Shown: positions 2,733 through 61,489, counted from the stretch's first letter. The stretch: DNA of 64,000 nucleotides from Candidatus Nanohaloarchaea archaeon (GCA_013343275.1 CP046106.1:192001-256000), one strand, 5' to 3'. The notes: generated by a model not told the origin, from the sequence alone. Made by a program: numbers and translations.

Positions 2733-2859
2733 TATTCTAGACTTAGTGTTTCTTACTTTTGTATTCCTTTGATTCTAGTTCTGAAATGGTTGTTAGACTC
2801 ATCATTAAATATTCGCTTATTAATGGCCTTGAGCTATTTCTAGAATAGGGATTGGTTGA

Positions 2860-2930
2860 AGCCGGAGCAGGGATTTGCACCCTGGTAAACCGCTCTGCAG
2901 GCGGTCGCATAACTACTCTGCCACTCCGGC
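2860..2930 (-). tRNA. tRNA-Cys (GCA)
   Basis: GCCGGAG/CTCCGGC acceptor stem, ACCGC-CT-GCA-GA-GCGGT anticodon arm, CAGGG-TGCAAAT-CCCTG T arm, U discriminator; CCA not encoded. Confidence 0.92.
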
Positions 2931-2990
2931 TTTTCTGGCTGGACTGGAGTCCGAGAAAACGTGTTTGTTTTCGGCCTGCCACTCCGGCTT
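2918..2990. repeat. 15-bp direct repeat duplicating the 5' end of tRNA-Cys
   Basis: CTGCCACTCCGGCTT at 2918-2932 and 2976-2990. Confidence 0.85.
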
Positions 2991-5210: not shown

Positions 5211-5316
5211 CCCCTTTACCCCCGAAAAAGAATGAAAGGCCTATACTGAAATAATTTTTCGCTAAACCTGTTTCGGTCCATTCTCTTTTAACCTTTCCAC
5301 TTACATTCTGAGATAT

Positions 5317-5582
5317 GGGTAGGCCGGGCGGTTCGGGGTCGCCTGTAACCTGAAATCCTCTACATGCAGTGGGCCGAAAACCAGTGCGAGGAGTTTCTTC
5401 GACGGTTCCGGCCCTTTCCTGGGCTGTCGATGATCCGTCCTCCGGGATGTCGCAGGTTGTGAATCGGGTCAGGCCTTGACGGGAGCAGCCCTAAGCAGTC
5501 TGTGGCATGTTCGGAGGGTGGCGGATCTGAGGTCCGGGAAAGGATTCACCGGCCGTTGAAGAGCTTCCAGCACTGGGAACCC
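5317..5582 (+). ncRNA. ffs: Archaeal SRP (7S) RNA lacking helix 6
   Basis: 5' GGGTAGGCCGGGCGG..CCTGTAACC Alu-like domain, long helix 5 (CCAGTG/CACTGG etc.), helix 8 GGGTCAGGCC..GGGAGCAGCCC, terminal GGGT/ACCC. Confidence 0.9.
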
Positions 5583-5649
5583 GCTGGTTTTTACATGTTG
5601 CAGGCTTTTAACATTTCGAACCTGTATTCTTCAATGTCTGAAACCTGCT

Positions 5650-47951: not shown

Positions 47952-48017
47952 ATGACACAATCAACCAAAGGTGGATATGTTCCACACGACTGGTTACGCT
48001 CAGTCGACACGCAATAA
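47952..48017 (+). CDS. uORF2, putative leader peptide MTQSTKGGYVPHDWLRSVDTQ
   Basis: Read by hand; GGYVP motif; CGTGAT SD-like sequence upstream. Confidence 0.6.
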   Translation: MTQSTKGGYVPHDWLRSVDTQ

Positions 48018-48037: not shown

Positions 48038-48097
48038 CAAACACAACTCAAAACCTTTCAACAGAAAAATTCTCAGGCCGGTCGCTATGAAACGTAG
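48017..48097 (+). CDS. uORF3, connector peptide MRSEERIQTQLKTFQQKNSQAGRYET
   Basis: Coupled to uORF2 by TAATG; overlaps the ProRS ATG out of frame. Confidence 0.45.
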   Translation: MRSEERIQTQLKTFQQKNSQAGRYET

Positions 48098-49313
48098 CGA
48101 ACTATTTGCCACAACCTCCAAGGAATCGGAGGCTGAGTTCGACTGCCGCAGTGCAGAACTTGCCGTAAAGGCCGGGCTGGTCCACAACTATGGTTCCGGA
48201 ACTTTCGGATTCACACACCTGGGCCGGAAAGTACTGGACAATATAGAAGAAGTAATCAGGGATGAGATGGACGAGATAGGCCAGGAAGTGACGATGAACA
48301 TCCTGCAGAACTCGGAGATGTGGGAGAAGTCCGGGAGGTGGAAGAACTTTGAGGGAGACGAGTTCTTCACACTGAAGAACCGTGACAACAGAGATTTCAC
48401 GATCGCGGCGACGCATGAAGAAGCCTCTGTCGAACTTGTCCGGAAGAAGATTCGATCCTACAGAGACCTGGACTTCATCATCTACCAGATAGGTCGAAAG
48501 TTCAGAGACGACAGAGCCAGGAAAGGCCTTCTGCGTGGGAAAGAGTTCTTCATGAAGGATGCCTACAGCTTCCACGCCGACAGAGAGCAACTTCAGGAAA
48601 CCTACCATGAAATGATTGAGGCCTACACCACGATCTTCGAGAAACTAGGCCTTGAATTTTCCAGAGTCTCCGCTGAAAACGGTTCAATGGGAGGCAGTCA
48701 GAGCCATGAGTTCATGGCTGAATCAGAGATCGGTAGCGACACATACCTCAAATGCGTGGATTCGGAGTGCAGATACGGCGCCAAAGATCTGGGTGAAGAG
48801 AAATGCCGTGAATGTGGCTCTGAACTTCAGGATGTCAGCGGCATCGAGATAGGCCATCTGTTCAAGCTTGGCAAAAGATACAGCTCCAAAATGGATCTGA
48901 CATTTACCGATGAAGATGGAGAGGAGAAAGATGTCATCATGGCCTCCTACGGAATCGGTGTATCAAGGCTGATCGCAGCAATAATCGAGCAGAACAACGA
49001 TGAAAACGGCATCACCTGGAACAGTAAGGTGTCTGCCTTTGACTGCTCGATCATCATTGCAAGACATGAAGATGCGGCAGTTGAAAAGGCGGAAGAGCTG
49101 CACGATAAACTTTCCGAAAGAGGCCTTGAAGTCCTGCTCTTCGATGAAGGATCTGTCGGTGAGAAGTTCGCTGAGTCCGATCTAATGGGGATCAAACGGA
49201 AGGTCATATTGGGGAATAACTACCTGGAGAACGATGTGATTGAGGTAGAGAAGAGGGATGGACGAACCTTCCAGGCCGACTTTGAGGAGATTAAGGAGGT
49301 GGTATCCTCCTGA
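48087..49313 (+). CDS. proS: Bacterial-type prolyl-tRNA synthetase paralog (no full INS editing domain), proline-free
   Basis: THEE, YQIGRKFRD, GLLRGKEFFMKDAYSFH, MGGSQSHEF, GIEIGHLFKLG, YGIGVSR, anticodon-binding domain. Confidence 0.88.
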   Translation: MKRSELFATTSKESEAEFDCRSAELAVKAGLVHNYGSGTFGFTHLGRKVLDNIEEVIRDEMDEIGQEVTMNILQNSEMWEKSGRWKNFEGDEFFTLKNRDNRDFTIAATHEEASVELVRKKIRSYRDLDFIIYQIGRKFRDDRARKGLLRGKEFFMKDAYSFHADREQLQETYHEMIEAYTTIFEKLGLEFSRVSAENGSMGGSQSHEFMAESEIGSDTYLKCVDSECRYGAKDLGEEKCRECGSELQDVSGIEIGHLFKLGKRYSSKMDLTFTDEDGEEKDVIMASYGIGVSRLIAAIIEQNNDENGITWNSKVSAFDCSIIIARHEDAAVEKAEELHDKLSERGLEVLLFDEGSVGEKFAESDLMGIKRKVILGNNYLENDVIEVEKRDGRTFQADFEEIKEVVSS

Positions 49314-50169: not shown

Positions 50170-51648
50170 ATGAGCCAGGAACTCGGTATCACGGTAAAGA
50201 AAGATCAGAACCCTTCAGAATGGTATACGCAGGTAGTCCAGAAAGCAGAGCTAGCGGATTACGCACCTGTCAAGGGCTGCATGATAATCAAGCCGTACGG
50301 CAACAAGCTATGGGAATCAATCAAGGAAGACTTCAACTCCAAGATCACAGATACCGGGGTAGAAAACGCATACTTCCCACTATTCATACCGGAGAGCTAC
50401 CTGGAAAAAGAAGAAGATATTGTAGAAGGGTTTGATCCTGAAGTCGCATGGGTAACACATGGAGGCGACAAAGAACTGGAGGAAAGACTTGCAGTAAGGC
50501 CTACATCTGAAAGCATAATCGCACCATACATGGCTGACGAAGTAAGAAGCCACAGAGACCTGCCTCTAAGACTCAATCAGTGGGCCAACGTTGTACGCTG
50601 GGAAGCCACAGACACAAGGCCTTTCCTGAGGACCAGAGAGTTCCTCTGGCAGGAAGGACACACAGCACATGCAACAGAGGAAAGTGCTGACGAAGAGACT
50701 ATGTTGAGGCTGGAGCAGTATCAGGAAGTAATCGAAGATCACCTTGCCATTCCTTCGATCCTGGGTTACAAGCCGGAGCATGATAAGTTCCCGGGCGCCA
50801 AATACACTACAACAATCGAAACCTTGATGCCGGATGGAAAAAGTATTCAGTCGGGAACATCTCACCAGCTGGGCCAGCACTTTGCCGAGGCCTTCGAGAT
50901 AGAGTTCGAGGATGAGGACTCGGATACTCAGACTGCGTGGACGACGTCCTGGGGCCTCTCAACAAGGACGATCGGTGCTTTGATCATGGCACACGGTGAC
51001 GATGATGGCCTTAGATTGCCTCCTCGTGTTGCACCGACACAAGTGGTCGTCGTACCTATCTATCAGGAGGACAATCAGGAAGAAGTAGTTGAATACGCAG
51101 AAAAAGTGACGGAAGAGCTCGAAGCTGAAGGCCTGAGAGTAGACCTCGATGACAGAGATCACAGAACTCCTGGCTACAAGTTCAACGAATGGGAGTTGAA
51201 AGGAGTACCTCTCAGAGTAGAGATAGGGCCTAACGAAGTAGAAGACGATGCAGTTACACCTGTTAGAAGAGACAGCGGCGAGAAAAACATGGGCCAGGAC
51301 AGAGAAGAGTTCGTGGAGGAAGCCGAAGAAGTACTGGAAAACATCCAGGAATCACTTTACAACGAGTTAGAAGAGTATCTGCATGAAAATATCAGAGAGG
51401 CCGACTCGAAGAACGAGATTCTGGCGACAATAGGCAAGAACCGTGGATACGTCAAGGCCCGATGGTGCGGAAAAGAGGAATGCGAGGCCGAAGTGAAGGA
51501 CGAAGTCTCTGCCGAGATCGTAGTGCTACCGTTCCGAGAGGACTCCAAGCCTGCTACTATCCAGGCCTCCGAAGAACACATCGACGGAGAATGCGCAGTC
51601 TGCGGTGAAGAAGCCGAGAGATGGGCCTACTTTGCGAAAAATTACTGA
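50170..51648 (+). CDS. proS: Archaeal/eukaryotic-type prolyl-tRNA synthetase
   Basis: RPTSE, QWANVVRWE, FLRTREFLWQEGHTAH, SWGLSTR, C-terminal AKNY. Confidence 0.95.
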   Translation: MSQELGITVKKDQNPSEWYTQVVQKAELADYAPVKGCMIIKPYGNKLWESIKEDFNSKITDTGVENAYFPLFIPESYLEKEEDIVEGFDPEVAWVTHGGDKELEERLAVRPTSESIIAPYMADEVRSHRDLPLRLNQWANVVRWEATDTRPFLRTREFLWQEGHTAHATEESADEETMLRLEQYQEVIEDHLAIPSILGYKPEHDKFPGAKYTTTIETLMPDGKSIQSGTSHQLGQHFAEAFEIEFEDEDSDTQTAWTTSWGLSTRTIGALIMAHGDDDGLRLPPRVAPTQVVVVPIYQEDNQEEVVEYAEKVTEELEAEGLRVDLDDRDHRTPGYKFNEWELKGVPLRVEIGPNEVEDDAVTPVRRDSGEKNMGQDREEFVEEAEEVLENIQESLYNELEEYLHENIREADSKNEILATIGKNRGYVKARWCGKEECEAEVKDEVSAEIVVLPFREDSKPATIQASEEHIDGECAVCGEEAERWAYFAKNY

Positions 51649-54475: not shown

Positions 54476-55420
54476 TTACTTTTCCAGGAACACAGGTTTT
54501 CCTCTGTCCAGCATCTTTTCTTCTCCAAGCCAGACGGTAGGGCTCTCGCAGACAGCATCCCAGTGTACACTGCAAGGGTTGTATCTTTCGTGATCTTCCG
54601 GGAAGTAGTGGGTATTGTCGCCGAACGCTATGTGGACTGTTCCAAGCACTTTCTCGTCCTGCAGAGTTTTACCTATCAATGTGGCCTCAGGATTTGTCCC
54701 GAAACCGAACTCAGCTATATTCCTCACGCATTCATCTTCCATTGCATCCTTCAGCTTGGATTCTCCCTTCACCTCTACAACCTGCGAGTTCTCTATTACT
54801 ACTTCAGTTCCTGAATCCGCATGAGGGAAGTGATCTATAACCAGAGTACCATTCATCTCTATCACTCCTCCATGAACCTCTCCAGCCGGAAGATTACCGA
54901 AGTCTCCCGGCTCATGTATTATCCCGGTATCTGTAAAGAAGGAGTCCATACGAACCTTGAACTCAAGATCTGTGCCTGAAGGAGTCTCAATTCTTATTTT
55001 CTGGCCTTCTTCAAGAAATGAGAAAGCTTTCTGTGAAATTTCCTCTATCCTGCTGTAGTCGGCCTGCAAGGAGCCTGTCCAGATCTCCTTGTTAACTCCA
55101 GGAAGCGTAGCTCCTCTTGCACCTGCTTTATTGGCATCTACACGGGCCTGTGTATGGCTTATAGACTTGACTGTAGGAGCAATAAACACATCTGAGCTCT
55201 TCATAGCCTCTGCAACATCCTCCGGTGGCTCGGTTCCAGAGGTATCAGGCTCAGGGTATTCTCTGTACTCCAGACTTCCAGCTTTCCTTTCCGTAACTGA
55301 ACGTAAGGCCTCTATGATGTCTGGGTCGTTCCCATCATCAACTATCACAACAGACTCATCGCTACCGATATCCAGACACTGGTTCACAATTCTTTCAGCA
55401 CCTTTCTCCAGATCCATCAT
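54476..55420 (-). CDS. M29-family aminopeptidase
   Basis: GNLPAGEV, NIAEFGFGTN, DEKVLGTVHIAFG, HWD. Confidence 0.85.
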   Translation of the reverse strand: MMDLEKGAERIVNQCLDIGSDESVVIVDDGNDPDIIEALRSVTERKAGSLEYREYPEPDTSGTEPPEDVAEAMKSSDVFIAPTVKSISHTQARVDANKAGARGATLPGVNKEIWTGSLQADYSRIEEISQKAFSFLEEGQKIRIETPSGTDLEFKVRMDSFFTDTGIIHEPGDFGNLPAGEVHGGVIEMNGTLVIDHFPHADSGTEVVIENSQVVEVKGESKLKDAMEDECVRNIAEFGFGTNPEATLIGKTLQDEKVLGTVHIAFGDNTHYFPEDHERYNPCSVHWDAVCESPTVWLGEEKMLDRGKPVFLEK

Positions 55421-56508
55421 CTATCCACCTCGAAATCCGATACAAAGTCCATCATGATGCTGTAGTAATCACCGAGACTGTCGATCACTGCGTACTCGTT
55501 CGGAGCGTGAGCATTGTAGCCCTCAGGTCCGAAGACGACGGCAGGGATACCGTGCTCTGTCAGAAACCTCATATCACTGCCTGGCTCCTTACGGGAGATC
55601 TTGCATTCCTCCTCAAATTTTTCAGCTGAACTCTTCAAGGTCTGAACATGTCTATTGTCGTGATCGGTCGAGAGCATCGACTCATTTAGCGACGCCTCAA
55701 CTTCAAGCCCTTCTATACTCCGGATATCCTCCAGTACTTCCTCGTTAGGGTACTCTCTGGCAGTCCTGATATCCAGCCAGGCCTCTGTTATTTCCGGCAC
55801 TTTGTTGGTTGATTCCCCGCTTTCCAACTTTCCAAGGTTTACTGTTGTAACCCATTTTTCGCCATCCTTGTGGTCAGCAAATAGATCTCTGATATCGGGC
55901 CATTTATCCATGAACTTTTTCGCTGCGTTCTCACCGTTCCACGGCCTCGATCCATGCGCCGAGAGGCCTTTTGCAGTTACTTTCAGCCATAGAATTCCTT
56001 TCTGATCTGTAATTATGTCCATATAGCCTTCCTGGTTATTCGGTTCCGCTGATACCGCGAACTCTGGAGAGTAATGTTCTTCGAAGAGGTAGCCAGCGCC
56101 GTTGAACCCGCCTTTTTCCTCGTCTGAGACTATCATCAGGCCTACGCTTGGTTGCTTATCTTTCAGATCCTTCATTACCTGCATGAGTGCGGCGACTCCT
56201 GCCTTCATGTCGCCTGTTCCTCTACCATAAAGCTTTCCATCTTCTCTTTCTGGCTGGAACATTTCATCTGGTGCCTCTATTACGTCGATATGGCCGTGCA
56301 GCATCAGATCAGGATTGTCATCGCCGAAAGTGATAACCATGGAAGGGATGCCCTCATTTTCATGTCTGTTGACCTCGAACTCTGGTTCGGAGAAGTAGTC
56401 CTCGATAAAGTCCAGGCACCTGTTTATCTCCTTCAGGTCGTCGTTTGTGGATTTGAACTTCACAAGTTCCTCGGTAAGTTCCAGTATCTGGTCCTGTTTA
56501 TCGGCCAT
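55417..56508 (-). CDS. M20 metallopeptidase (ArgE/DapE family)
   Basis: HGHIDV, GRGTGDMK, DEE, AHGS.PW.G.NA, AH..NE. Confidence 0.9.
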   Translation of the reverse strand: MADKQDQILELTEELVKFKSTNDDLKEINRCLDFIEDYFSEPEFEVNRHENEGIPSMVITFGDDNPDLMLHGHIDVIEAPDEMFQPEREDGKLYGRGTGDMKAGVAALMQVMKDLKDKQPSVGLMIVSDEEKGGFNGAGYLFEEHYSPEFAVSAEPNNQEGYMDIITDQKGILWLKVTAKGLSAHGSRPWNGENAAKKFMDKWPDIRDLFADHKDGEKWVTTVNLGKLESGESTNKVPEITEAWLDIRTAREYPNEEVLEDIRSIEGLEVEASLNESMLSTDHDNRHVQTLKSSAEKFEEECKISRKEPGSDMRFLTEHGIPAVVFGPEGYNAHAPNEYAVIDSLGDYYSIMMDFVSDFEVDR

Positions 56509-56853: not shown

Positions 56854-57231
56854 ATGAGCTCTCAAAAAGAAGCCGGAAATACTTTTGAAAGAGTTATAGA
56901 TGCCGCACCAGACACGCTCTACGGCGATTACTCTGATGTAAGTGATCTTGAGGACAGGTACGTGATTTTCGAATATAAGGATATTGATGAAGGCATCAAT
57001 GTAATTTCCTCCGAGGAGATTGGAATGATTCTCGAGGCCGGAGCTGCGAATGACCAAGAATTTCCTCTTTTCAGAGGTATCGAGGCCAGCGAAGGATATG
57101 TCAGAAATGCCCTGGAGAATGGAGAGGGACTGATGGCTGCAAGAATAAGAGAAGGAGAAATTGATGATGCAGGTTACATGATTGAAGAAGGAGAGCTGAA
57201 AGGCCTCATGACCTTCGAATCAACTAACTGA
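56854..57231 (+). CDS. Hypothetical acidic protein
   Basis: 125 aa with host-like composition. Confidence 0.55.
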   Translation: MSSQKEAGNTFERVIDAAPDTLYGDYSDVSDLEDRYVIFEYKDIDEGINVISSEEIGMILEAGAANDQEFPLFRGIEASEGYVRNALENGEGLMAARIREGEIDDAGYMIEEGELKGLMTFESTN

Positions 57232-58401
57232 AACATTTCTCACCCCTTCTACCGGTCCCTGCCCATGATCGCTGTATTCGGTGCCTGTGGCTTCAAGTGC
57301 TTCCTCAGCGGAATCGATTAACTGGATCTCACCGGTTCCGTCTTTATGGAACTGATAACCCATTGCATCGCTGACCTCATCACCGTAGTTAATGGCCTCT
57401 GGGCTGTATCTTTCTGGGTTAAATCCGGCATCGGAAAGCCTGTCTGCGACATCCCATGCTGACTGATGGTTGGCATCGAACTCTACGCCAACCCAGCGAA
57501 TGCTGTCGTCTTCAAGGGCCTGTTCAATGCTGTAGGCCTCGTCCTCCTCGCTTTCTTCAACCTGCTTTTCTGGGTCAAGTGCCGACATGACATCGTCAAG
57601 CGAATGTTCTCCTCCGTGGAGGATGCGGAAGCTGGCCATCTCACCGGTTTCATCGTCGTAGGTCTTCTGCTCAACTCGGTAACCCGTATCGGTAGAGCCT
57701 CCGGAACCCACTTCAAACTCTCTGGCCACACGCTCATCACGCTCCTCGTTTAAACTGGAGTGCACGTGATCCACTAGGCCTATATTCTCGTCAGTTACGT
57801 AGACCTCTCTGGAGTTCTCACCGGTGTACTCAAAGTTGCCGTCAGGATAAACCATAGGAACAACTGTCTCACGGCCTTCTCCAGCGAATACCTCAGGGTA
57901 CTTGTTCAGGCTGACTCCTTCAGGTACTGCTCCCTTCTTTTCATGGCCGTGCTGAGTCTTCGCATGAACAGAGGAGACAGGATGGGTAACATACCTGTCG
58001 GCGTCGGACTGTCTAGCTGTTTCAACCCTCTGATCCACGAGGTCCTGGTAGAAAGGTGCGCCATCCATTTCCTGAAACTCTGGATCCAGAACAATCCCTC
58101 CGAACTCGGCCTCATGGCCATCACGGTGATACTTTACAGATCCTGTACCGACAACAGTATCCTCCGGTATTTCTTCGCCTTCAACTTCTTGGCCTCCCGC
58201 TACTTCAACTACAAAGTTATCGCTGCCTTCTCCAGGGATTACTTCTTCCTCAACCATTTCAGGGTCTGTGAAGGCCACGAAAGGATAGTCCTCGTAGACT
58301 GCGTTGTAAGCTCCTGCTATGCCTTCGGCATCGAGTTCCTGTTCTCGGGCAGGTCTTACTTTGTACTCTACTGATTTCTGTTCTTGCTCCAAGTAGGCCA
58401 C
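57220..58401 (-). CDS. GNAT-fold acetyltransferase-like protein
   Basis: Y..VY..YP, VVGTGS, AEFGGIVLDPEFQ..G (V.P..RG.G-like), H..TQ; second degenerate domain. Confidence 0.65.
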   Translation of the reverse strand: MAYLEQEQKSVEYKVRPAREQELDAEGIAGAYNAVYEDYPFVAFTDPEMVEEEVIPGEGSDNFVVEVAGGQEVEGEEIPEDTVVGTGSVKYHRDGHEAEFGGIVLDPEFQEMDGAPFYQDLVDQRVETARQSDADRYVTHPVSSVHAKTQHGHEKKGAVPEGVSLNKYPEVFAGEGRETVVPMVYPDGNFEYTGENSREVYVTDENIGLVDHVHSSLNEERDERVAREFEVGSGGSTDTGYRVEQKTYDDETGEMASFRILHGGEHSLDDVMSALDPEKQVEESEEDEAYSIEQALEDDSIRWVGVEFDANHQSAWDVADRLSDAGFNPERYSPEAINYGDEVSDAMGYQFHKDGTGEIQLIDSAEEALEATGTEYSDHGQGPVEGVRNVSVS

Positions 58402-58478
58402 CTATAGCTGCTGTTTTCTTGCTGATTTTTGCCTGTTTGTGCGTTGCGTCGTGTTGTAATGATGTGTTGTAGTGTCAT
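58368..58478 (-). CDS. Connector uORF MTLQHIITTRRNAQTGKNQQENSSYRWPTWSKNRNQ
   Basis: Strong SD GAGGTGA (58491-58485); overlaps the GNAT GTG start out of frame. Confidence 0.5.
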   Translation of the reverse strand: MTLQHIITTRRNAQTGKNQQENSSYRWPTWSKNRNQ

Positions 58479-58631
58479 TGAATTTCACCTCAAAAAGCAG
58501 AATGAGACTGTAGAGGTCTTTAGCTCTACAGAATCAGGATAATCAGCAGGATAATAGAAATACCGGGTGCTAGCTGATCAAGATCTGAAACAGAATTAAA
58601 GCTTTGAGAGTCAAGGCTAGAGGTGAAGCTA

Positions 58632-58709
58632 TTACTTAGTCTGTAGAACGCGGCCACCCTTCTCGAGCTGGCCTTCAATAAAGCGTCCACCCGTGATTGC
58701 CTTGGACAT
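58632..58709 (-). CDS. Putative leader peptide MSKAITGGRFIEGQLEKGGRVLQTK
   Basis: TATA box TTTTATAAAA about 26 nt upstream (leaderless spacing); two GGR motifs; TAA TAG double stop. Confidence 0.55.
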   Translation of the reverse strand: MSKAITGGRFIEGQLEKGGRVLQTK

Positions 58710-58854
58710 ACCTCCAGTTAGGTGATTACTTTTTATAAAAATTCTGCTTAACAGGCCGTTGTGGAGGAGTTCCACATACCTATTTAAAGATAAGAGAGGA
58801 ATCTTTGCTTAGTAAGTTTTAATCCGTGAAAGTTTTTCTCGGGGATGATTTATA

Positions 58855-59505
58855 ATGGAAAATAACCAGGTTCAGACGAAACAGGACATGGACGAATTCA
58901 AAACAGGCACGACTACAGTAGGCCTAACAACCGATAAAGGAGTTATTCTGGCAGCTGACCGGAGAGCCTCAATGGGAAGGCTTACAGCTTCAAAGTACGC
59001 CAAGAAGGTGTACAAGCTGGATGATCAGATAGGCCTTACAATCGCTGGCAGCGTCGGCGATGCACAGAAGATTATCAGGATGATGAGAAGCCAGCTCAAC
59101 CTGCACAAGCTGGAGACCAAGGAACTATCGGTCAAAGGAGCAGGAACACTACTATCTAACATACTACACGGCCACAAAGCCATGCCGTTCTTCAACCAGT
59201 TCATCATGGGCGGAATCGAAGACGGCGAAGGAGTACTCTACGACCTGGATCCTGCAGGAGGCCTGATGAAGCACGAGAAGTTCACGGCCACAGGATCAGG
59301 AAGCCAGATGGCTTACGGAGTACTTGAGGACAAGTTCGAGCAGGAACTTGACCACGAAGAGGGAAGAAAACTTGCAACACGAGCAGTACAGGCTGCCATG
59401 GAAAGAGACACGGCCTCCGGAAACGGAATTATGGTAGCTGAAATCACTGAAGACGATGGCTACCGTGTGCTCGATGAGAAAGAAGTAGAGAGCGTTCTCA
59501 AGTAA
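58855..59505 (+). CDS. psmB: Proteasome beta subunit
   Basis: Propeptide, KTG|TTTVG, AGSVGDAQ, ATGSGS, RD.ASG. Confidence 0.95.
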   Translation: MENNQVQTKQDMDEFKTGTTTVGLTTDKGVILAADRRASMGRLTASKYAKKVYKLDDQIGLTIAGSVGDAQKIIRMMRSQLNLHKLETKELSVKGAGTLLSNILHGHKAMPFFNQFIMGGIEDGEGVLYDLDPAGGLMKHEKFTATGSGSQMAYGVLEDKFEQELDHEEGRKLATRAVQAAMERDTASGNGIMVAEITEDDGYRVLDEKEVESVLK

Positions 59506-59596: not shown

Positions 59597-61489
59597 TTGA
59601 TTGACAAAATGGAAGAATTAGAAGACGTAAAAGATCTTTTGCCTCCAGAGGCAAACGTAGACGACATAAAGTTCGAAGCATCAGACATAGTGGTATACAC
59701 AAACAGCAAGGATTTTTTCCTTGACCACTCAGATGTTATTCAGGACATAGTATCACAACTCAAGAAAAGAGTGGAAGTAAGGCCTTCATCAAAGCTTTTC
59801 AACAAGCCTGAAACCGCTGAAGAGAAACTCAAAGAAATAGTTGAAGAAAGAGAAGAAGCAGAGATCGACAATGTTATCTTCCAGCCTTCTCTCGGAAAAA
59901 TGATAATCAGGACACCAAAGCCTGGAGCAATTATAGGTAAGAAAGGCTCAGGCCTACAGGAAATCAAGGAGGCAACTCTGTGGGCTCCGCAGGTGGAAAG
60001 AGTGCCATCTATCAGCTCGAAGGTAGTTGATAGAGCCAGAGAGCTGACTGTAGAGGATCCAGAGTTCAGGAAAGACTTTCTGCATGAAGTTGGGCAGAAG
60101 ATCCGCCTTGACAAATCTGTCGGCGATGAATGGATACGTACCTCCGCTCTAGGAGGGTTCCGGCAGGTAGGAAGAAGCTGTGTGCTTCTGCAGACCGAGG
60201 AATCTAACGTACTGATGGATGCAGGAATCGACCCTTCCGCAGAGTCAGGCACGAAGGACAACTATCCTTTCCTCAACGCGCCTGAACTTGATCTTCAGAA
60301 CCTTGACGCAGTAGTTCTCAGCCACGCACACATGGACCACGTAGGAATGATCCCATATCTATACAAGATGGGATACGACGGGCCTCTGTACTGCACCAAG
60401 CCTACAAGAGACCTGATGATCATGCTGTGCCTAGACTACATAGGCCTGGCACACAGCGAGCGAGCAAAAGCCCCTTACGACTCCTCAGACATCAAAAAGG
60501 CAGTTAAAAGAACAATCACACCGGATTATGGAGAAGTTACCGATATCACCCCTGATATGAGGCTTACGCTGAAGAACTCAGGCCACATTATCGGATCAGC
60601 TCTCTGCCACATCCACGTGGGTGAAGGCCTGCATAATCTGCTTTACACTGGAGACTACAACTACGATCAGACTGAGATGTTGAGTCCTGCAGATACTAAC
60701 TTCCAGCGTGTTGAGACCATGATTACGGAGTCTACTTACGGAGGCCGTGATGATAAACAGACGCCGAGAGATGAGGCGAACAAGAAGTTCCTCTCCCGGG
60801 TAAAGCAGACTCTGAATAAGGGGGGCAAGGTTATCGTACCTGTCTTCGCCGTAGGACGTTCGCAGGAGGTTCTAGGTCTCTTGGCTGACGAGATGAAGAG
60901 AGACTACTTTGACTACAATGTCTACATTGATGGCATGATTAACGATGTGAACGCTCTCCACACAGCCTATCCAGAGTTCCTCTCGGAGAAGGTACAGAAC
61001 AAGGTCCTGGATGAGGAATCGCCGTTCCTTATGGACAATATCAAGACTATCGGAAGCCATCAGGAGAGAAAGGAAGTGTATGAAGACGATTCCTGTATAA
61101 TTCTGACAACTTCAGGATCTATCACAGGCGGACCGGTAATGTCCTACCTTCAGGAAGAGGCCGAAGCTCCAGAAAACACTCTGATCTTCGTAGGTTACCA
61201 GTTCGAGGGATCGCTTGGACGTAAGATCCAGTCCGGAGCAGACAGGGTTGAGATTAACGGAGAGAAAGTTGATGTCAACCTTGATACCTACACGGTTTCA
61301 GGTTTCTCTGCACACAGTGACCGGCAGCAGATCATCAACTTCTCCAAGAACCTGAGAAGCACACCTAACAAGATCCTGACTAACCACGGCGAGGAATCAA
61401 AATGCTTCTCACTCGCCAGCTCCCTGCACAAGATCCTGAACATCGACACGTCAGCACCTCAGAACCTGGAGACAATCCGACTTAACTAA
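59597..61489 (+). CDS. Beta-CASP ribonuclease aCPSF1 (FttA)
   Basis: KH domains, LGGFRQVGRS, SHAHMDH, ESTYG, FSAHSD, HGE; follows psmB. Confidence 0.95.
   Translation: MIDKMEELEDVKDLLPPEANVDDIKFEASDIVVYTNSKDFFLDHSDVIQDIVSQLKKRVEVRPSSKLFNKPETAEEKLKEIVEEREEAEIDNVIFQPSLGKMIIRTPKPGAIIGKKGSGLQEIKEATLWAPQVERVPSISSKVVDRARELTVEDPEFRKDFLHEVGQKIRLDKSVGDEWIRTSALGGFRQVGRSCVLLQTEESNVLMDAGIDPSAESGTKDNYPFLNAPELDLQNLDAVVLSHAHMDHVGMIPYLYKMGYDGPLYCTKPTRDLMIMLCLDYIGLAHSERAKAPYDSSDIKKAVKRTITPDYGEVTDITPDMRLTLKNSGHIIGSALCHIHVGEGLHNLLYTGDYNYDQTEMLSPADTNFQRVETMITESTYGGRDDKQTPRDEANKKFLSRVKQTLNKGGKVIVPVFAVGRSQEVLGLLADEMKRDYFDYNVYIDGMINDVNALHTAYPEFLSEKVQNKVLDEESPFLMDNIKTIGSHQERKEVYEDDSCIILTTSGSITGGPVMSYLQEEAEAPENTLIFVGYQFEGSLGRKIQSGADRVEINGEKVDVNLDTYTVSGFSAHSDRQQIINFSKNLRSTPNKILTNHGEESKCFSLASSLHKILNIDTSAPQNLETIRLN

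Follow-up and report, generated by a model that had tools for sequence, protein, structure and literature searches.

What is the function of the 462-nt gap that separates psmB from the gene on its other side in a Candidatus Nanohaloarchaea archaeon? The window analyzed here is a 64,000-nt stretch of DNA (bases 192001–256000 of CP046106.1, assembly GCA_013343275.1) from a single-contig genome of 915,886 bp (0.92 Mb) that is designated G000. Within the window, psmB (58855–59505, plus strand; Pfam Proteasome) borders one side of the gap, and a minus-strand gene for a 390-residue protein with a GNAT-like fold (57220–58392) borders the other. The best explanation of the sequence between them is that it forms the 5′ leader of the GNAT-like gene and would act as a sensor of charged tRNA-Ile and charged tRNA-Leu. 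It belongs to a family of leaders that is also found upstream of aminoacyl-tRNA synthetase (aaRS) genes, and we consider it highly probable that these leaders sense charged tRNA. That they do so through a +1 frameshift at a hungry codon, in the manner of prfB, is the best reading of the leader and in our assessment a probable one.

All features of the leader are read on the minus strand, and positions are those of the window. The first upstream open reading frame (uORF1; MSKAITGGRFIEGQLEKGGRVLQTK, 58632–58709) consists of 25 codons plus a stop, followed by a second stop, and represents the 0 frame of the proposed sensor. It contains two sensor sites. In site 1 (58677–58692), a sequence that resembles a Shine-Dalgarno (SD) element, GGGUGGA (58692–58686), is followed by the spacer CGC (58685–58683), by UUU as the predicted P-site codon (58682–58680), and by the Ile codon AUU as the predicted A-site codon (58679–58677). 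Site 2 (58644–58659) is composed of GGGUGGC, the spacer CGC, the P-site codon GUU (58649–58647), and the A-site codon CUA for Leu (58646–58644). Because site 2 lies 33 nt after site 1, both sites feed a single +1 frame. From site 1 this relay ORF (58526–58681) comprises 51 open codons without an ATG and terminates at a UAG (58528–58526). Its end encodes the run I-S-I-I-L-L-I-I-L-I-L (58529–58561), which is the most conserved stretch of DNA in the leader.

The same layout recurs elsewhere in the genome. G000 was scanned for short ORFs with the GG motif, and the regions upstream of all aaRS genes that could be located were inspected; the genes were located by Pfam family searches, a class I motif script, and NCBIfam scans and were named after NCBIfam equivalogs. 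The members of the family share a short, apparently leaderless uORF in which GGU-GGN is followed by a codon of the form YRY, by UUU, CCC, or GUU, and then by a codon designated X. They precede eight aaRS genes and an operon that includes the TrpRS gene, and X specifies the cognate amino acid every time. The uORFs read MKGGRF-T before ThrRS, MSSKGGRF-C before CysRS, ..KGGCF-V before ValRS, MKGGCF-G before GlyRS, MKGGRF-Y before TyrRS, MKGGRP-S before SerRS, and MKGDYD-H before HisRS; the gene for a bacterial-type ProRS is preceded by two, MNGGYV-P and ..KGGYV-P, and an operon of GNAT (PF00583), M20 peptidase, and TrpRS genes by MAQKGGCF-W. Ten aaRS genes that lie closely behind another gene (those for Ile, Leu, Met, Lys, Glu, Asp, Ala, Arg, PheRS alpha, and archaeal ProRS) have no such uORF.

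A first-pass annotation of the window, made from the sequence alone, had described a regulatory leader-peptide region at this locus, related to one upstream of a ProRS gene, and had suggested a lineage-wide family. The genome and cross-genome scans support this suggestion, and the family of short GG-containing uORFs is much larger than was proposed. The gene at 48087–49313 is indeed a bacterial-type ProRS (TIGR00409, 404.5 bits; cut-off 306.7), and the KGGYV (47967–47981) and QQKNS (48059–48073) sequences reported upstream of it are present. The agreement between codon X and the downstream gene, the nucleotide-level motif with its +1 frameshift layout, and the link between the +1 frame and what lies downstream were not part of that annotation. 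The genome has two ProRS genes, of which the bacterial-type gene lacks the insertion domain and has a two-step sensor leader, and the archaeal-type gene (50170–51648), with a ProRS-C_1 domain, has no leader. The operon with the Trp sensor (MAQKGGCF-W-PPAQK; locus L028, G000:C1:578135-581377, minus strand) lies outside the window and appears to comprise genes for a 242-residue GNAT protein, a 350-residue M20 peptidase, and TrpRS, with gaps of 16 nt or overlaps between them.

Double sensors are found at two G000 genes that do not encode an aaRS: the GNAT-like gene of this locus (GGRF-I and GGRV-L) and a gene for a 172-residue protein (GGCF-V and GGCV-L). The leader of the latter (locus L027, G000:C1:672703-672934, minus strand), which has a second uORF that begins MKQLQHN.., is a paralog of the leader studied here. 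The 172-residue protein gave no family match, and it was rejected as a relative of the 390-residue protein (hhalign probability 0.2%).

For other organisms, species genomes were scanned with a pattern that is blind to X, ATGAARGGTGGAYGYTTT, and 80 loci were examined out of at least 118 matching stretches. Fifty of these loci are bacterial and 30 are on nanohaloarchaeal or archaeal contigs; the latter include one duplicate of another locus and two that end at a contig edge. Among the matches listed, X is the cognate amino acid in 27 of 27 archaeal motif instances with an identifiable downstream aaRS (Thr 9, Gly 7, Ser 5, Tyr 3, Val 2, and Cys 1), and none of the ORFs downstream of the 50 bacterial loci matched the G000 aaRS reference set. 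At one locus (L130), X is Ile and the downstream gene is similar to threonine ammonia-lyase (TIGR01127, 361.9 bits, below the cut-off of 378.75), so that in some nanohaloarchaea the first step of Ile synthesis may have been retained under Ile control. The uORF at this locus, on a contig of a nanohaloarchaeal metagenome-assembled genome (L130:996-2260), reads MKGGRF-I, and its +1 tail reads ISIISIIGIIG. ThrRS loci were also retrieved by protein and not by motif from 70 genomes of the order; the best 30 loci were taken, and 29 were evaluable, the remaining one being truncated. The uORF is present in 20 of these 29, and its codon 7 specifies Thr in all 20, with R, C, H, or Y at codon 5 and F or P at codon 6. 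The ThrRS leaders have hairpins at the 0-frame stop.

The pattern of conservation within the motif is one of nucleotides. In every motif instance listed, GGT (or, in three leaders, CGT) stands at the first Gly codon, CGY encodes Arg, and TTT encodes Phe; GGT, CGY, and TTT represent 20, 19, and 28%, respectively, of their codon families in G000 genes. The form YRY of codon 5 yields four chemically unlike residues (R, C, H, and Y). The GGGUGG sequence could pair with the 3′ end of 16S rRNA (...GGAUCACCUCC) at six positions, two of which are G-U, and GGTG is a common SD core in G000. In all leaders, the SD-like element is located 3 nt before the shift codon, the same spacing as in prfB. The P-site codon is UUU or CCC in most leaders, with TTT and never TTC, and is CCU in two ThrRS leaders; GUU is the P-site codon of site 2 and of the ProRS leaders, and GAU that of the HisRS leader. 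These features indicate that the constraint on the motif acts at the nucleotide level and that the motif is an RNA signal.

In G000, the +1 frame ends with a UGA that overlaps the AUG of the aaRS gene (AUGA) in the Thr, Cys, Gly, Ser, His, and Pro leaders, and for Val and Tyr its stop precedes the start by 2 and 7 nt, respectively; the 0-frame stops of the aaRS leaders are 48–190 nt upstream of the gene start. The +1 stop falls within −10 to +16 of the aaRS start in all of 42 distinct leaders from many genera, as compared with 7 of 42 for the other frame, and the ending is exactly AUGA in 18 of the 42. The +1 ORFs of the aaRS leaders are 25–60 codons long. An ATG is present in 9 of the 42, and 15 contain no ATG, GTG, or TTG, so that independent initiation is not the general way into the +1 frame. 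A two-step relay is seen at 13 ProRS loci: wherever a pair of motifs was found, the frame reached by a +1 shift in the first uORF coincides with the 0 frame of the second, and 11 of the 13 loci have their last +1 stop at AUGA. The connector ORF that the first-pass annotation had placed before ProRS is in the wrong frame (+2), the conserved relay there being the +1 frame that ends at AUGA. Several G000 genes that start at an NTGA, including the archaeal ProRS gene and the gene at 59597 (aCPSF1/FttA-like), have an open frame of 25–60 codons ending there, and these frames may be further relay uORFs.

At the locus under study, orthologous leaders were compared from G000, G053, G001, G003, and the metagenome contigs L184/L185 and L186, which represent six distinct sequences; the metagenome search for further orthologs gave three loci, two of them near-identical. 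In the leader alignment, G000 is matched by G001 (80% identity), by G053, and by G003 (69%). In the five other orthologs uORF1 is retained, with indels that are multiples of 3 and one insertion of 54 nt. An Ile codon (ATT or ATC) follows the motif of site 1 in all six, and a Leu codon (CTA or CTG) follows that of site 2 in all five orthologs that have the second site. The +1 frame contains no stops in the six distinct orthologs, as compared with one to six in each other frame. It is 41–69 codons long, has a shuffled-open probability of 0.02–0.13 per sequence, and lacks an ATG in every ortholog. In five of the six, the +1 tail has the form ..I(I/V)LLIILIL (ISIILLIILIL and the variants AIILLIILIL, VSIILLIILIL, and ITIVLLIILIL), and G000, G053, G001, and G003 share a nearly invariant block of 34 nt, CTATTATYCTGCTGATTATCCTGATTCTGTAGAG. 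Because the Ile/Leu run sits in the +1 frame without an ATG, this block appears to be coding sequence in a startless frame. The ortholog in L186 has a single Ile sensor and the +1 tail IPITGIIIG.

The sensor codons and the composition of the tail match at each of these loci. Sensors for Ile and Leu are combined with an Ile/Leu run, and a sensor for Ile alone is combined with an Ile run (L186 and L130). The Val and Leu sensors of the 172-residue protein gene are associated with the tail LLLLVLLL, the Leu sensor of a paralog (L018) with a Leu-rich tail, and the Trp sensor with a +1 tail that ends ..SWP.

The UAG of the +1 frame is contained in the 5′ arm of a hairpin, CUGUAGAG/CUCUACAG (58508–58531). 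Between the hairpin and the SD of a second uORF is a T5 tract (58492–58496), a possible archaeal terminator signal; the SD itself, GAGGUGAA, is at 58484–58491. This second frame, uORF2 (58368–58478, 36 codons, MTLQH...), extends 24 nt beyond the main start, out of frame with the main gene, to which it is proposed to act as a coupling ORF. Inside it, an SD-like AGGUGG (58398–58403) is situated 5 nt upstream of the main start, which we place at the TTG at 58392 and not at the GTG at 58401, the start of the longest ORF; the aligned start column across six orthologs reads TTG, TTG, GTG, ATG, ATG, ATG. A hairpin is present around the +1-frame stop in all orthologs with differing sequence: the arms are identical in G053 and G001, the hairpin of G003 and L184 is reshaped to 6 bp that close a GGCC loop, and L186 has a different hairpin. 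The T tract that follows is T5 in four of the six orthologs, T4 in L184, and missing in L186. The SD of uORF2 is GAGGTGA in G053 and G001, GGTGAT in G003, weak in L184, and AGGGTG in L186. uORF2 persists in the orthologs; it has a 6-nt indel in G003, and its stop in L186 forms an AUGA with the main ATG; CGGTG upstream of the main start is also kept in the orthologs. The first-pass annotation had reported uORF1, the hairpin, and a connector uORF that overlaps the GNAT start out of frame. The connector corresponds to uORF2 (58478–58368), and all three elements are present as reported and are kept in the five other orthologs.

A TATA-like box, TTTTATAAAA (58731–58740), is centered ~26 nt upstream of the uORF1 ATG. 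It is kept in G053 and G001 and reads TATTTAAA in G003. An A/T-rich box is found ~27 nt upstream of the ATG in 11 of the 12 G000 uORFs examined, namely at this locus and at 10 other first uORFs; the sole uORF without it is the internal second uORF of ProRS. The TATA box at 58740–58731 named in the first-pass annotation is present and has the same placement at 10 other first uORFs. Given this spacing of ~26–27 nt, the mRNA of uORF1 is predicted to be leaderless or to carry hardly any leader. That annotation had also considered that the box might serve only the divergent psmB, but the ~27-nt spacing shared by the uORFs and the distance of 115 nt to the psmB ATG argue that it serves uORF1.

These features suggest the following mechanism. 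Transcription from a promoter ~27 nt upstream would produce an mRNA that starts at or beside the AUG of uORF1. The ribosome would then encounter the two sensor sites, each with an SD-like GGUGG, CGC, a slip-prone UUU or GUU in the P site, and AUU (Ile) or CUA (Leu) in the A site. When charged tRNA is ample, uORF1 would be read in frame to its stop, which lies more than 100 nt short of anything else. When charged tRNA is scarce, the A site would remain empty, and the P-site tRNA could slip by +1, aided by the SD-like pairing; in its logic this would correspond to prfB of bacteria, except that a sense codon takes the role of UGA. The shifted ribosome would read through a spacer frame of 40–70 codons to the Ile/Leu run and the stop in the 5′ arm of the hairpin. 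Its arrival or stalling at this point would melt the hairpin and allow more translation of uORF2, which has its own SD and would be coupled to the weak main start (TTG in G000). Antitermination, melting of the hairpin with reinitiation, and a stalled ribosome that holds the RNA open are all candidates for this second stage. At the aaRS genes the arrangement would be simpler, in that the UGA of the +1 frame overlaps the AUG (AUGA) and the shifted ribosome would be handed to the aaRS start, with a negative feedback loop on tRNA charging as the outcome. More broadly, the leaders may constitute a nanohaloarchaeal regulon in which a portable module (leaderless uORF, GGUGG, slippery codon, and codon X) measures the charging of one tRNA through a programmed +1 frameshift and delivers the ribosome to the start of the cognate aaRS gene or, at genes for amino-acid supply such as the one studied here, to a second-stage run made up of the codons that are sensed; we lean toward this wider proposal with some reserve.

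Several points weigh against this mechanism or temper the counts given above. That the ribosome itself shifts frame is what we infer from the design of the sequences, as are the rise in downstream expression on shortage and the working of the hairpin and uORF2 stage. GUU, GAU, and CCU are poor slippery codons under bacterial rules. At this locus the stop of the +1 ORF precedes uORF2 by 48 nt, and among the six orthologs no conserved structure was found that would connect the hairpin with the SD of uORF2 or mask that SD. The direction of control at the GNAT-like gene is not certain because the Ile/Leu run would itself stall ribosomes in a shortage. The uORF is lacking at 9 of the 29 ThrRS loci and hence seems to be dispensable. 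The sequence CAAAACC and an A/T-rich box, which together resemble a B recognition element and TATA box, are present ~25–60 nt upstream of the ThrRS start (L036-L065), between the uORF and the gene. Because this block persists in the nine loci without the uORF, the aaRS gene is probably also transcribed from its own basal promoter, the leader perhaps acting on transcription. NTGA overlaps occur at 417 of 918 crude G000 gene calls, which suggests that coupling of stops to starts is very common, and with ATGA overlaps this frequent in the genome the chance rate of an AUGA ending is raised. Further, the regular expression used in the ProRS scan required a Pro codon, the start positions in the ThrRS, ProRS, and 42-leader comparisons were projected from alignments, and the genomes are related, so the counts do not represent independent events.

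Charged tRNA could also be sensed without any frameshift, by ribosomes that stall at X and, as in attenuation or an ermC-like system, remodel the RNA or uncouple RNA polymerase, with the +1 ORFs entered by independent initiation or reinitiation. The agreement between X and gene fits any hungry-codon sensor. Stalling would also suit the hairpins at the 0-frame stop of the ThrRS leaders and at the +1 stop of this locus, the T5 tract behind the hairpin in four of six orthologs, the ATG inside the +1 ORF in 9 of 42 leaders, and the occurrence elsewhere of GNAT-like paralogs with classical ATG-started, S/Y/F-rich leader peptides that lack the GG motif. Left unexplained are the +1 frame that is open to the gene start in 42 of 42 leaders, 15 of them without a possible start codon, the fixation of UUU, CCC, and GGU at synonymous sites, and the Ile/Leu run that is found in a startless frame in all six orthologs, and we regard stalling alone as unlikely, although it deserves to be kept in view. 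The X–gene agreement would be expected too of a translation-independent switch that binds tRNA like a T-box, with the codon after AGGGUGG as specifier and UGG paired with the tRNA 3′ end; AGGGUGG appears to resemble the core of the T-box sequence. No Rfam T-box was found in the window, the leader, or six aaRS-leader loci: the scan of the whole window at gathering scores returned only the signal recognition particle (SRP) RNA and tRNA-Cys, and a scan at E up to 1 of 58300–58900 and the six aaRS-leader loci returned only chance-level matches (E 0.37–0.84). Moreover, every instance of the motif shares its frame with an ATG close by, itself ~27 nt behind a TATA-like box, the codon is 7 nt from UGG and so too close to span a tRNA, and the +1-frame design is left unexplained; such a switch is very improbable. 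Even less weight is given to the view that the GG peptides are functional products, either small proteins or substrates that the downstream enzymes modify; the first-pass annotation had offered a role as substrates as its alternative. Conservation of the peptides at G-G-x-x-X and the GNAT-like enzyme encoded downstream at this locus speak for this view, but the same motif precedes genes of nine aaRS specificities and the threonine ammonia-lyase-like gene, position 5 is R, C, H, or Y with only the codon form YRY in common, the C-terminal parts are not conserved, and codon choice is fixed at synonymous sites.

The mechanism that had been put forward in the first-pass annotation was translational attenuation, in which an anti-SD sequence, UUCACCUC, would mask the SD of uORF2 and competing 1:2 and 2:3 helices would be set by the position of the ribosome in uORF1. 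Both partners of the first pairing, TTCACCTC (58627–58620) and GAGGTGAA (58491–58484), are present, and an 8-nt complement is unusual in G000, being reached by 7 of 500 shuffles of the spacer. It is absent from all five other orthologs, including the closest, in which the longest complement is 4–5 nt, a chance level that 267–498 of 500 shuffles reach; in G000 the anti-SD (58620–58627) is coding sequence of the +1 ORF. For the helices, the hairpin CTGTAGAG/CTCTACAG (58531–58508) is real and conserved, and its proposed competitor, TTCTACAG (58648–58641), can form 7–8 pairs with CTGTAGAG in five orthologs. The competition shows no covariation: region 2 never varies, the changes in region 1 are synonymous ones in codons of the sensor motif, and the pairing of TTCTACAG with CTGTAGAG is indistinguishable from conservation of codons. 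The likeness between QQENS in uORF2 and QQKNS at the ProRS locus does not extend to orthologs, in which QQENS is not kept and the uORF2 peptides read ..KPFNNSS.. and ..QNHSNSGS... With the switch not conserved, and with the X–gene agreement and the open +1 frame outside its reach, this model retains little probability.

Other structures were considered for the region. Long-range pairing of the Ile/Leu block with an upstream GATCAGC, or with AATCAGCA and CAGCAG in uORF2, occurs in minimum-energy folds of G000 and G053 and was dropped because G001, G003, and L184 have not retained the partner sequences. When four tail-type leaders were folded from tail to start, they showed no structure in common, and among the six orthologs neither compensatory changes nor a conserved alternative helix was found for a terminator/antiterminator pair. 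The possibility that uORF1 is a remnant of an epimerase NAD-binding N terminus (ITGG..F.G) was dropped once the leader family had been seen.

The proposed +1 frameshift sensor has features in common with several known systems. A passage of PMC12421855 describes the prfB frameshift site as AGGGGG, 3 nt, CTT-T, and TGA, with a TTT-T variant in some genomes. The resemblance of the leaders to this site lies in an internal SD-like element, a 3-nt spacer, a P-site codon that is slippery in prfB and is UUU or CCC in most leaders, and a slow A-site codon that reports the activity of the gene itself, as that passage has it for prfB (PMC12421855). The motif is also placed early in the ORF in both, and the result would be negative feedback in both. 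The leaders differ from prfB in that the A-site codon is a cognate sense codon and not UGA, the sensor is in a separate uORF outside the regulated gene, and the +1 product would be a throw-away relay peptide that ends at a gene start or a codon run; they are also archaeal, have GGUGG as the SD-like core, and are putative frameshift sites. In bacterial leader-peptide attenuation (trp, his, leu, ilv, thr, and pheST), codons of the leader name the amino acid that is supplied or charged downstream. The leaders described here likewise have a short ORF with codons that name the downstream amino acid, and similarities extend to the Ile/Leu run that ends at a hairpin and, in a relative, to the Ile run before the threonine ammonia-lyase-like gene. 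In contrast with attenuators, the aaRS leaders have a single regulatory codon, the codon run of this locus is in a startless frame that can be reached only by a change of frame, no conserved terminator/antiterminator pair was found among the orthologs, and the setting is an archaeon with leaderless mRNA. With T-boxes they share the occurrence of one family of cis-elements before many aaRS genes, its identity set by a codon-sized specifier, but they are translated uORFs of 10–40 codons without a Stem I/antiterminator architecture. Hungry-codon +1 frameshifting is itself known, as at CUU-AGG-C of yeast Ty1 and in the starvation frameshifts of E. coli, and here, as there, a scarcity of the A-site aminoacyl-tRNA would drive a +1 slip of the P-site tRNA. 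The known cases give a fusion protein or represent an error, whereas the leaders would be dedicated sensors wired to the cognate aaRS.

Both T-boxes and leader-peptide attenuators are systems of bacteria, and little is known of the ways in which archaea adjust aaRS levels and amino-acid supply to demand. Host-dependent DPANN archaea are thought to rely on the host for amino acids. In full-text literature searches, no description of leaders of this type was found. According to a 2021 review, only one programmed frameshift, a −1 case, had been reported in Archaea (PMC8211752). If the proposed mechanism is true, the leaders would provide the first regulatory +1 frameshift in Archaea and a third general solution to aaRS feedback, in addition to T-boxes and classical attenuators. 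The element is found before eight aaRS genes, the TrpRS operon, the GNAT-like gene, and the 172-residue protein gene in one genome, as well as across nanohaloarchaeal genera, and would bear on how DPANN archaea that depend on a host manage when their supply of amino acids fluctuates. It is short and modular, with a readable “address” codon; exchange of this codon should exchange the amino acid that is sensed, and the design may be compact enough for synthetic amino-acid sensors. The sensor codon can also help to assign unknown genes. By this criterion, the 390-residue protein would be connected with Ile/Leu, its paralogs with Leu, Phe, or Tyr/Phe, and the GNAT-M20 pair with Trp.

The 390-residue protein has its nearest named relatives in Candidatus Nanohalobium and Nanohalovita and gave no matches in Pfam (E up to 10) or NCBIfam. 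Its AlphaFold model has a mean predicted local distance difference test (pLDDT) score of 55.5; the first 130 residues are best and residues 135–235 are below 50, so that only the N-terminal GNAT-like part of the model is trustworthy. With this model as query, the top Foldseek matches are GNAT chains (E 2e-5; template modeling (TM) score to target 0.5–0.67), and in the ESM Atlas the protein groups with GNAT clusters of ~200–405 residues (feature score 0.95, TM ~0.7). Because the support comes from Foldseek and the ESM Atlas only and there is no Pfam or NCBIfam match, GNAT-like is used here as a fold-level label without sequence-profile support; the gene had been called GNAT in the first-pass annotation, a name that agrees with the fold and is not backed by a profile. 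Paralogs at five loci of other genomes (L013, L015, L016, L017, and L022) have ATG-started leader peptides of 20–24 residues without the GG motif. These peptides end in runs rich in Ser, Tyr, and Phe, such as ..SSSYFYFYSF and ..FSYSYSFFFSF, and look like classical leader peptides for aromatic amino acids.

The proximity of GNAT and M20 peptidase genes in the operon with the Trp sensor recurs at this locus, where an M20 peptidase gene (55417–56508) is located near the GNAT-like gene (57220–58392), with two ORFs on the opposite strand between them. On the other side of the leader, psmB is adjoined by the gene (59597–61489, plus strand) for a transcription termination factor, a beta-CASP/KH ribonuclease of FttA/aCPSF1 type, which would be relevant if the leaders act via termination. 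The window also contains the archaeal SRP RNA (5313–5586, plus strand; 136 bits) and tRNA-Cys (GCA; 2858–2931, minus strand).

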